Shown: positions 35,112-42,158 of the stretch, piece by piece | How positions within the stretch are numbered: position 1 is the stretch's first letter | How the letters are laid out: every line of letters starts with the position of its first letter | Assembly: GCF_013167455.1 (NCBI RefSeq) | Contig: NZ_CP038328.1 | Source: Escherichia coli O157:H7 | Lineage (GTDB): Bacteria; Pseudomonadota; Gammaproteobacteria; Enterobacterales; Enterobacteriaceae | DNA: 64,000 nucleotides | Direction: 5' to 3' (one strand) | The notes under the pieces: model-generated | Told to the model about the DNA's origin: nothing | The model's database searches: none | Seen by the model: the letters and a program-made list of their open reading frames with translations, nothing else | Program-made: the position numbers and the translations under genes

Positions 35112-38026
35112 TATGCAAGCCTCACAATGTAGTTAAATGCGATGTTTTTGACAGTGTTTTCCGCGTTACCCGCAGCGTTAACGGTGATGGTGTGTCCATG
35201 TGAGCCAATCGCAACAGAGTGCGTATGAGCACCAATACCGACAGTATGTGCGTGAGCACCTGCAGATGCAGCTGTGCCGCTGACACTATGAGTGTGCGCT
35301 CCTGCAGCACTTGTATTCACACTGGCCGCAGACACTACCTTATGTACTGACCCATTTTGTGACCACTGGCTGACTGCTGATGCGCCTGTGACACTATGAG
35401 TATGGTTTCCGGCACTTGCGGCTGTACCGCTCACACTGTGCGTGTGCGCCCCGGTGTTATTCGTGGATTTAGTGCCGTAATCAAACGACGATGTGGTTTT
35501 CGTCCCCAAATCCGTACTGGATGCGCTGGCGCTGTGGGTGTGCGATTTAATGCCGTCCTGTTCCTGAGACAATACGGCCCGACCACTGGCAGGTTTGCCC
35601 TTAATCGTCCAGCCACGCATATCAGGGATCACGCCTGACGGATAAGCGGCTGCAAGTTTCGGGTATGCAGATTTGTCAAAAGTCTGCCCCTGCATCAGGG
35701 CATAGCCAGACGGAACGGTATCTGATGGCCACGGGATTGGTGCGCCAGGCGGATAAAACTGCTCTGATGGCGTATAGAGTGAATAAACTGTACCGTCCGT
35801 TAACCCTTCCGGCTTATTAGCAGAATATGCTGGTGACGTATGAATCGTCACGCTGGCATTACTGGTATAATCCCATTGAATATTTACACCAGTCGCATAA
35901 TTTCCGATTGCAACGTAAATATCGTAAGTATCACCAGATGTATTGACCCAGGCAAAATTTGTAAACCCTGTCGATGTGCGCTGCCATAAAGCACCAGTAA
36001 TCCCCTTCGGATTACCATTACCTGCACGCAAAACAAGTTCAGATATACCTGCCTGTTGAGGTGACCCCACGTTAAATCCCGCGCCACCAATCAACGTAAT
36101 TGAAACAACAGAACTCGCCTGTGGCATGGTTACCGTTGCTAATTTGAACCAACCAGCACCACCGCTGAATGACATTGTTGTTGAGTTAAGCGTACCAATA
36201 TCTTTCGGCGTCAGTGTTATATCCGATGAAAGCGCCTTACCATTCACCTTACGGGCAGAAGGTACCCGACCATTCGCATTATCATTAGCTGCTTTCACTG
36301 CTTTCGGTGTCGCGGCAAGCGTTTCAGATGCGCTGTTGGTTGCACTACTGAGCTGGACAATTCCTTTTTGTGCTGTCGTAGCGTCCTGAGCAGTATATTT
36401 CCCGTTAGCAAGGTCATAGGCTGCCTTTACCGACTTTGGCGTTGCCGCCAGCATTTCAGATGTGCTGTTGGTCGCGTTGCTAAGCTGAACTATCCCTTTC
36501 TGTGCTGTCGTTGCATCCTGTGCGGTGTATTTCCCGTTAGCCAGCTCATACGCGGCCTTAACGGCTTTTGGCGTTGCCGCCAGTGACTCGGAAGTGCTGT
36601 TAGTCGCACTGCTGAGCTGTACTATCCCCTTTTTCGTCGTGCTCGCATCCTCAAGCGCCACGGCGGATGCAATATCCTCTGCCCGTTTTGCCGCTGTCTC
36701 AGCGCGCGTTGCTGCAGATTCCGCCGTACTTTTGCTCTGAGCTGCTGCCGTCGCACTACCAGCTGCCTCTGTCGCCTTCGTGGATGCCGTCGTGGCGCTG
36801 CTCTTCGCTGCTGACGCTTGTCTGGTCGCCTCATCTTTTGAAGCAGACGCAGATGATGCCGATGACGCCGCCGAACTGGCTGACGATGCGGCAGCCGTTT
36901 TTGAGGATTCTGCGCTGGTTTCCGACGCTTTCGCGTTCGTTTCGGATGTCTTCGCTGCGGAAGCAGAACTCGCTGCTGCGCTGGCCTGTTCAGTGGCTTC
37001 GCCAGCCTTCGTTGTGGCTGTTGAAGCAGACGATGCGGCACTTTCTGCCGATTTTCCGGCGGCGGTGGCACTGGCTGAGGCCTGCCCGGCACTTGTTGAC
37101 GCGGCACTGGCAGATAATGCAGCCGCTGTTTTTGAGCCTGCTGCTGCGGAGGCACTCTGTTCTGCTGCCGTTTCAGAGGACTTAGCGTTTGTCTCAGACG
37201 TTTTGGCCGCCTTCGCGGAATTGCCTGCCGCCGTTGCCGAGGAGGCTGCACTACTGGCGCTCGAGGCTGCGCTCGTTTCTGATGATTTTGCCGCCTCTTT
37301 TGAAGCCGACGCATCCCTGGCTGAGGAGGCAGCTTCTGACGCTTTCGTGGTCGCGGTGGATGCAGAAGTGGCGGCTGATTGTTGTGACACTGCCGCATTC
37401 GTTTCTGACGTTTTCGCCGCACCGGCACTGGTAGCCGCCGCGCTTTTTGAGGACTCTGCAGCGGCAGCACTTTTTGATGCTTCAGTAGCCTTTGTTGATG
37501 CCGTTCCTGCGCTGGAAGACGCTGACTGAGCCGACGACGCGGCCTGTCCGGCTGACGTGCTGGCTGCGCGTGCTGAGTCCGCAGCATCAGTCGCATGGGT
37601 TGCCGCCTCACGGGCTGATGTGCTGGCATCGCTGGCTGACTTCTTCGCGGCTGCCGTGTTCTGTGCCACCGCGGACGCGTTACGCGCCACCTCTTCCACC
37701 ATCAGCTCAAAACGGCGCAGTGCCTCCGGACGGACATCATCCTCAGTCATGGCACCAAGAAAATCATTCAGCGTACCGGGTTGAGAATCTTCATACACGG
37801 TGATGGTCCCGGCATGTGACGGCGGGAACCCTTCCACCAACAGAATAACGCTGTACTGACCGTACTCAACGTCCATGCTGTAACGACCGGCTTCATCCGG
37901 ATTTTCAGAGGCCACCGTGTTCACCACCACCGTGGCGCTGTTACGTCTGGCTTTCAGTTGAATGGTGCAGTTCTCTACCGGTTTTCCTGTGCCGTCTTTC
38001 AGTACACCTGAAATCTTTACTGCCAT
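35111..38026 (-). CDS. stf: Side tail fiber protein (lambda Stf family)
   Basis: ORF-track protein contains [38 protein letters not shown]... (lambda Stf N-terminus); Ala/Ser/Thr-rich low-complexity region; ~44-aa tandem repeats; HTHS-repeat C-terminus. Confidence 0.9.
36220..36650 (-). repeat. About three tandem copies of a ~132-bp (44-codon) repeat inside stf
   Basis: Protein repeats ...[44 protein letters not shown]... x3; visible as near-identical DNA blocks. Confidence 0.8.
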
Positions 38027-38090
38027 ATTCACCCCACAAAAAAGCCCGCCTGAACCGGCGGGCTGTCATAACACTGTGTTACCTGGCTAA

Positions 38091-38690
38091 TCAGAACTTA
38101 TAACCGACACCCACGATGAAACCGTCAGTGCGCCAGTCGCCACTGCCGGAGCCTTCATAAGCAATATCAATGGCCACGGATTCGGTCGGGTTAAACTGCA
38201 CGCCAGCCCCCCACGCCAGAGACGTGTTGCTGTGGCGACCGTCATCACTTCCGGTCAGCACATCGTGCGTTTTCCCCTTGTTGTCAGTTACGCGAAGATA
38301 ATCCCCGGAGAAAGTCGACACACGGCTGTAAGCCACACCCGCCATCGCATACGCGCTGAACCATTCATTCACGCGCACAGACGGCCCCGCCATTACGCTG
38401 AACCAGCGGTTACGAACGGAATCTTCATGCCAGCGGGTATCGCTGTAACGGGTAAGCTGGCGATTCTTGTCTCCTGCATAGCTGAATGACGTCACCAGCC
38501 CCAGCGTATCCGTAAACTCATAACGGTATTTCACGTTAATCCCGTTCAGATCATCACTGCCGGGAACGTTGGTCCGGGCATGAAGATACCCCGCGCTCAG
38601 CGTGGACTGATGTTCAGATGCCCATGCAGGCGCACCGGATACGGCCAGACAAATGGCTGCGGACAAAATGGCGGCATAAAGTTTACGCAT
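38091..38690 (-). CDS. lom: Lom/Ail-family outer membrane beta-barrel protein
   Basis: 199 aa with signal peptide and C-terminal ...GVGYKF; lambda lom position after J. Confidence 0.9.

Positions 38691-38756: not shown

Positions 38757-42158
<3,402 letters not shown>

Follow-up and report, generated by a model that had tools for sequence, protein, structure and literature searches.

The closest described systems for the gene analysed here are the Ur-lambda side tail fibre protein Stf (orf-401 + orf-314) and StfR of the E. coli K-12 Rac prophage. Cryo-EM combined with AlphaFold3 modelling portrays Ur-lambda Stf as a trimer that comprises a solved collar (residues 1-91), a linker (92-101), a modelled proximal coiled coil (102-393), a hinge (394-422) and a distal part that shares homology with T4 gp37; the collar consists of a beta-sheet plus a helix around the gpV/gpM junction (PMC12617516). 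The present stf gene, located in the 64-kb stretch of DNA that was analysed in full (64,000 nucleotides; hereafter, the window), shares with both of these systems the same collar domain (94 aa, 9e7m), an Ala/Ser-rich heptad shaft that leads straight into a PF03406 unit, a tip resembling that of T4 gp37, a downstream gene for the Tfa chaperone, and the J-lom-stf-tfa gene order. What sets it apart from both is its set of three PF03406 units together with a 151-aa middle module. In lambda, a single unit follows 37 heptads and begins at aa 356, compared to 461 here; in StfR, a single unit follows 52 heptads, and the middle part is different and longer (the entire protein is 1120 aa long). The likeness to T4 gp37 is limited to the tip (2xgf), where the 228 C-terminal residues align end to end, His-x-His repeats included; outside the tip, gp37 and the Stf shaft are unrelated.

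The PF03406 unit is spread far beyond the lambda-type fibres. A search with one 44-residue unit against 1.84 billion cluster representatives (E ≤ 1e-3) matched 2217 proteins; the best 150 of these 2217, in a ranking that favours multi-copy proteins, contain 2-15 units each, with a 44-residue spacing being the most common, followed by 56. Some P2- or P1-like fibres hold 11-12 almost identical units, and some other PF03406 arrays, unlike the present stf, alternate 44- and 56-residue near-identical units, which looks like a sign of recent expansion. The sequenced phages with the array include P2-like myophages, lambda, Mu-like phages and Stx phages. The P2-like myophage Chuche has the same three-unit layout, with 84% protein identity, directly after the baseplate-attachment domain; this is the arrangement of the P2-like (gpH type) fibres, which have no coiled-coil shaft. 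Residues 100-157 of the Mu tail fibre S (PDB 5yvq, 8ju3) align to unit 3 (E about 5e-8); our search of the literature for this region of the Mu S structure, or for fibres with an Ala-core heptad, found no specific description. All parts of the present protein belong to known families (lambda Stf, PF03406, gp37-like tip), and the additions reported below are small, namely, an allele with an exact unequal crossover, whole-heptad indels in the shaft, and an antisense ORF that is represented as a family in databases.

Gene, prophage neighbourhood and terminal domains

The stf gene (35111..38026, minus strand, 971 aa; Pfam PF08400, three copies of PF03406, PF07484 and PF03335) is a side tail fibre gene of the lambda type and lies in a lambda-like E. 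coli prophage, in agreement with the preliminary description of this locus, which had identified it as stf. The prophage tail fibre N-terminal domain PF08400 is matched over its entire profile (E 3.1e-72, positions 1-134 of 134), an annotated prophage gene of E. coli CDC#03-98 shows 100% identity, and the order J-lom-stf-tfa, with all four genes on the minus strand, is that of a lambda-type Stf, a class of fibre that is trimeric on the virion and speeds up adsorption. Upstream of stf are J (38757-42155), part of a lambda-like tail module, and lom (38091-38690; Pfam Ail/Lom); downstream is tfa (34530..35111), annotated as a tail fibre assembly protein of 193 aa and matching PF02413 (Caudo_TAP; E 3.4e-45). 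The start of stf was assigned to the ATG at 38026, and the GTG at 38032 that was picked by the ORF finder (973 aa, 35111-38032) was set aside, because the PGAP annotation of the identical gene (WP_000268883.1) places the start 6 nt inside that of the ORF finder, and the lambda homologue points to the same position, with the Ur-lambda Stf structure chain beginning with MAVKIS. Parts of stf are present in 5063 of the 5426 complete E. coli genomes, at up to 17 places per genome.

The N-terminal collar, the virion attachment domain, spans aa 1-96 (37739..38026, minus strand) and was identified by a phmmer match to residues 1-94 of Ur-lambda Stf (PDB 9e7m/9mgh; E 7.6e-52). For comparison of the other parts, we used 16 E. 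coli stf loci picked for differing gene length; this sample, like the other samples of relatives, is similarity-ranked and non-random, so that the frequencies are rough. The receptor-binding tip (aa 744-971 plus the stop codon; 35111..35797, minus strand; phmmer, PF07484 (Collar), PF03335) matches the tip of the T4 long tail fibre gp37 (PDB 2xgf) with E 2.5e-88 over 228 aa, carries the His-x-His repeats, with DNA repeats at 42-nt spacing at 35225-35456, and is 76-100% identical among the 16 relatives. The middle module (aa 593-743, 151 aa; 35798..36250, minus strand), delineated by segment-wise blastp, is found in some relatives only, with 83-100% identity in 8 of the 16, and is absent from the other 8.

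The heptad shaft and its length

The tract between the collar and the first PF03406 unit (aa 97-460, 52 heptads; 36647..37738, minus strand) was analysed by composition, 7-residue autocorrelation and a heptad table. It had been described as a low-complexity Ala/Ser/Thr region of ~300 residues; such a region is indeed present (aa 117-455: 38% Ala, 25% Ser, 12% Thr; entropy of 2.6 bits vs about 4.0 in the rest of Stf), but it is by no means featureless, being strictly heptad-periodic. Residue identity at lags 7, 14 and so on to 56 is 0.39-0.45, compared to 0.23 expected and 0.14-0.27 at other lags. When written in sevens, aa 97-460 resolve into 52 xxAxxSA heptads with zero register breaks over 364 aa, in which position 3 is Ala in 98% of cases, position 6 is Ser in 77% and position 7 is Ala in 71%; positions 3 and 7 reproduce, without interruption, the 4/3 spacing of a coiled-coil core. 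The end of the 52nd heptad is the exact start of the first PF03406 unit, and the DNA repeats inside the tract recur at intervals that are multiples of 21 nt. Given this periodicity, together with the collar and gp37-tip matches to the Ur-lambda Stf layout, we infer that aa 97-460 form the proximal trimeric coiled-coil shaft, an ordered element that the preliminary description missed. A coiled-coil helix rises by about 0.148 nm per residue, and the 364-residue shaft would span about 54 nm.

Shaft length was compared across 120 database homologues and lambda. The database search, run with aa 1-470, returned only proteins of ≤823 aa, many of them partial, which would bias any count of units, and was used for shaft-length classes alone. 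The first unit starts at residue 461 in most of these proteins, and at 447, 412, 356 (lambda and others) or 349 in the rest. Pairwise alignment with the 52-heptad form yielded nine distinct single shaft deletions: 14 aa (2 heptads), 28 aa (4 heptads), 49 aa (7 heptads), 105 aa (15 heptads; two different events), 112 aa (16 heptads), and three deletions of 18, 29 and 30 aa that are not whole heptads and each come from a single-sequence cluster only. Thus, 6 of the 9 distinct deletions remove whole heptads; for arbitrary sizes, the binomial probability of this would be about 5e-4. The deletion endpoints sit at short direct repeats, for example, AAK(S/T)SET and AASSAS. Because the DNA repeats of the tract lie at multiples of 21 nt, this preference for whole heptads may stem from the mechanism in addition to selection. 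These natural whole-heptad indels provide a small testable point on how coiled-coil fibres tolerate changes in length.

The three PF03406 units

The array consists of three tandem 132-bp (44-codon) units at 36251-36646 on the minus strand. Units 1 (aa 461-504; 36515..36646) and 2 (aa 505-548; 36383..36514) were delineated by repeat finding, Pfam and codon-register alignment, and unit 3 (aa 549-592; 36251..36382), the last third of which is of the downstream module type, by codon-register alignment. TRF reported a single array (36318-36628; period 132, 2.4 copies, 80% matches, no indels, score 405), and a second repeat search found three in-register copies of 132 nt. The repeat signal is far beyond chance because PF03406 (Phage_fiber_2) matches three stretches of Stf with E 1.2e-51 (172.4 bits vs the cutoff of 22); the copies are exactly 44 aa apart, between the N- and C-terminal tail fibre domains, and the best stretch, aa 464-504, covers profile positions 1-41 of 42.

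The feature is of a known kind and was correctly spotted in the preliminary description, which had placed about three 44-codon repeats with a ~132-bp period at 36220-36650, but was also partly over-described there. The units had been called near-identical; in fact, they are 60-76% identical in DNA and 68-84% in protein, so that their similarity and, by implication, the rate of change were overstated. Units 1 and 2 show 76% nucleotide and 84% amino-acid identity, units 2 and 3 show 67% and 73%, and units 1 and 3 only 60% and 68%, respectively; the longest exact in-register run common to any two units is 17 nt. The differences within unit pairs fall mostly at codon position 3 (25-35, vs 3-12 at positions 1 and 2). 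That these differences are mostly synonymous indicates long independent histories: the units are old duplicates whose protein similarity has been held by purifying selection. An AlphaFold2 monomer model of aa 431-640, built from a 13-sequence alignment, is of too low confidence to be used (mean pLDDT 39.7, pTM 0.17), its only recurring feature being a short low-confidence helix in each unit; the same model, at this pLDDT of 39.7, places a helix at residues 4-29. The units would presumably play a structural role in the fibre.

Unit number among relatives

The number of units differs among the 16 E. coli relatives; aa 1-460 are colinear in all 16 (91-100% identity). There is one unit in K-12 StfR and six other loci, two units in three loci, three units in five loci as well as in the present stf, and four units in strain N58; the copy number, which the preliminary description had proposed to check across related prophages, is therefore not invariant. 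The last unit ends in a tail that changes together with the module downstream of it and reads …ANDNANGRV, …NAEKRL or …VMDETNKKAP.

The four-unit allele of strain N58 (L002) is the most informative. Positions 3-42 of its extra unit match unit 3 at 10 of 10 informative sites, and positions 52-132 match unit 2 at 34 of 34; both halves are 100% identical to units 3 and 2 of the present stf, and the switch between the two falls within a 9-nt identity block. The 750 nt downstream of the array are 99-100% identical to those of the present gene. The extra unit is what would be expected from one out-of-register crossover between unit 3 on one copy and unit 2 on a second. The two-unit allele of strain 41EC2 (L019) consists of unit 1 and then an exact copy of unit 3. 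The direction of the changes, from three to four units and from a long to a short shaft, is suggested by parsimony.

A 601-nt query containing the array and its flanks matched 3635 genomes. Among 60 rows sampled down the ranking, about 17 contained the three-unit form, about a dozen contained two-unit forms, and about two dozen matched through unit 1 only. Across these 601 nt, several independent O157:H7 genomes show 100% identity and 433 records ≥99%. Since the allele forms differ while several O157:H7 genomes are 100% identical, the unit number is polymorphic among alleles and stable within lineages. The copy-number variants lie between diverged alleles, with one exception, the N58 allele, where the distal flank is 99-100% identical.

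Recombination and fibre length

These observations fit a model that we consider probable, in which the junction region of Stf has the anatomy outlined above and is subject to slow recombination that changes the numbers of units and heptads. The Stf chain, presumably a homotrimer, runs from a collar at the tail tip through the 52-heptad shaft with an Ala/Ser core, the PF03406 units and the middle module to a gp37-like receptor-binding tip that would be folded with the help of Tfa. The PF03406 unit, being common to the fibres of lambda-like, P2-like, Mu and Stx phages, would act as a shared homology patch, such that fibre parts could be exchanged at this shared homology, and out-of-register pairing would now and then add or remove whole units. 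In the shaft, recombination between short in-phase repeats would add or remove whole heptads. Both processes would change the fibre length in quantal steps while keeping the fold intact, and, on the scale of strain lineages, such changes would be rare, without a slippage switch. The claim that recombination in the tract and the repeats alters fibre length is in line with the differences in both shaft length and unit number among relatives, and such changes in length might be of adaptive value.

A further reading, more speculative and in our estimate rather doubtful, is that the shaft and the PF03406 array serve as two independent quantised length rulers, one graduated in heptads (about 1 nm each) and the other in 44-residue units, and that, jointly with this, in-phase recombination resets the rulers and selection keeps mainly the register-preserving products. 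If that were the case, the distance over which the side fibre can reach would be matched to how thick the O-antigen or capsule layer on the host surface is across E. coli lineages.

With respect to the recombination machinery, the classical slippage or RecA pathways should be inefficient here because the units share short and imperfect homology. De Paepe et al. found experimentally that lambda recombines with the stf/tfa regions of Rac and Qin at about 2e-6, across sequences that are 88-96% identical, and credited phage recombinases of the Rad52-like type, which act on diverged sequence (PMC3945230). Rad52-like recombinases or, alternatively, template switching would fit the 9-nt crossover interval of the N58 allele.

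Alternatively, the unit number might change only through wholesale swaps of distal modules, for example, invertase-associated ones, and never within the array. The co-variation of the last-unit tail with the downstream module is compatible with this possibility, as is the coming and going of middle modules as blocks, and ancient stf exchange has been attributed to invertases (PMC3945230). Such swaps as the sole route are nevertheless unlikely, because the N58 allele differs by one exact unit-3/unit-2 chimera only, the sequence to either side of it being 99-100% identical, and the 41EC2 allele is short of exactly one unit. No Mu gix-like crossover site with ≤3 mismatches was found in the 64-kb window, and the annotation shows no invertase gene adjoining tfa at this locus.

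Less likely still is a role of the 132-bp array as a hypermutable contingency locus, at which slippage or RecA recombination between near-identical units would generate phase-like variation in host range. The range of 1-4 units among relatives and the long arrays in other fibres, with as many as 12 near-identical units, would be in keeping with such a locus, but the stf units show only 60-76% identity with exact runs of at most 17 nt, their mostly synonymous differences imply long independent histories, and all 601 nt of the array region are identical in several O157:H7 genomes. Given this identity, the array is better regarded as a probable site of slow recombination than as a slippage hotspot. 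The original proposal of a site of slippage or recombination thus survives in its second half, supported by the crossover product in strain N58, whereas slippage is unlikely, the array being invariant within lineages.

Under the favoured model of slow recombination, the unit array and the heptad shaft would represent natural fold-preserving junctions for the construction of Stf chimeras with varied length or specificity. Beyond such phage engineering and annotation hygiene, the importance of the feature is small.

Alternative-frame ORFs in the shaft tract

The tract contains long open runs in three alternative frames, of 351, 262 and 178 codons, compared to 45-85 codons in a stretch of the same size from the C-terminal half of stf. 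When the codons of the tract are shuffled, these frames contain open runs that average 201, 238 and 103 codons. With a G+C content of 61% and a preponderance of GCN, TCN and ACN codons, the tract thus owes its open alternative frames to composition, and the suggestion that it spawns long spurious antisense ORFs is borne out. The ORFs in question are an antisense ORF of 249 aa (36780..37529, plus strand) located inside the heptad tract, which we judge to be a by-product of composition, a second antisense ORF of 172 aa (36667-37185, plus strand), and an Arg/Pro/Gln-rich ORF of 335 aa in another frame of the minus strand (36622..37629), judged spurious. The 335-aa ORF had zero PHROG matches; in its frame, the observed run of 351 codons compares with a shuffled mean of 201 (SD 64), p about 0.04 uncorrected.

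The 249-aa antisense ORF matches phrog_560 over its full length (E 4e-120), and its lambda counterpart is annotated as orf206b. That this ORF is a real overlapping gene, with the tract constrained by two frames, seems highly improbable: it is open in 17 of 17 sequences, with the full-length PHROG match and an apparent dN/dS of 0.17, near the 0.14 of the sense frame, but it shares its wobble positions with stf, which makes a low dN/dS automatic, shuffled tracts average 238 codons vs 262 observed in that frame, two relatives have GTT in place of the GTG start, no function is known for the PHROG family, and antisense-changing transversions are not depleted (7/45 vs 13/78, p = 1). The latter comparison used sites that are four-fold degenerate in stf, split by whether or not the antisense amino acid changes, and took the place of dN/dS and codon-position counts, which cannot judge the antisense ORF because the wobble positions are shared with stf. 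Very probably, the 249-aa ORF is not a gene, and orf206b and phrog_560, both already in databases, are best treated as probable artefacts. Another matter of annotation concerns the repetitive 5' part of stf: it occurs up to 17 times per genome and the database holds many truncated entries, which suggests that it breaks draft assemblies.

Repeat arrays and the receptor-binding tip

Some P2- or P1-like fibres (P0121, P0122, and P0124 among the database proteins found in the family search) contain a higher-order repeat of 6–12 PF03406 (Phage_fiber_2) units, in which 44- and 56-residue units alternate, the longer one including a AGKAPSSHTHPWNQITGVPT linker. This alternation and the near identity of the copies within these arrays indicate that arrays elsewhere in the PF03406 family have expanded recently. 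The receptor-binding tip of the side tail fibre protein Stf (residues 744–971) can be aligned end to end with the tip of the T4 long tail fibre protein gp37 (PDB 2xgf, E 2.5e-88); within the part of stf that encodes the tip, DNA repeats with a 42-nt spacing (35225–35456, minus strand) code for GAHTHS-type His-x-His motifs (PF03335).

Annotation of stf and its surroundings

Most of the database homologues of the N-terminal half of Stf are labeled “partial” and end at differing positions within the protein, and stf-like sequence is present in up to 17 copies per genome; together, these observations suggest that stf often breaks short-read assemblies. The start of stf is GTG 38032 in the mechanical ORF list (MNMAVK…) and ATG 38026 in both the RefSeq annotation and the lambda structure (MAVKIS…). 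The Ala/Ser/Thr-rich shaft region of the gene also encompasses an antisense ORF (36780–37529, plus strand) of 249 codons, the product of which matches phrog_560 (“unknown function” in PHROG) over all 249 amino acids (E 4e-120). The lambda reference genome lists the counterpart of this ORF under the name orf206b. The ORF is probably spurious and has been propagated via phage annotation.

Next past tfa, on the opposite strand, lies a manganese catalase family gene (33520–34410, plus strand), followed by a ferritin-like gene (32995–33501, plus strand). In strain CDC#03-98, whose prophage stf is identical to the one analyzed here, this pair is followed by a second ferritin-like gene, genes for a general stress protein and a SAM-dependent methyltransferase, what remains of a tfa pseudogene, and IS66 elements. 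The catalase and ferritin-like genes (32995–34410) may be either prophage-end cargo or part of the neighbouring chromosome.

Fused and interrupted relatives of stf

In the 1056-residue database protein P0238, the N-terminal part of a terminase large subunit is joined directly to the final portion of the Stf heptad shaft, which is followed by units and tip. This terminase-Stf fusion looks like the product of a big internal prophage deletion with an endpoint in the repetitive shaft. A comparable “terminase … tfaQ” annotation coincides with a partial match in one genome, NZ_CP122929.1. In O157:H7 strain 2571 (NZ_CP038425.1), stf, otherwise 99.6% identical, is split by the IS3-family element IS1203.
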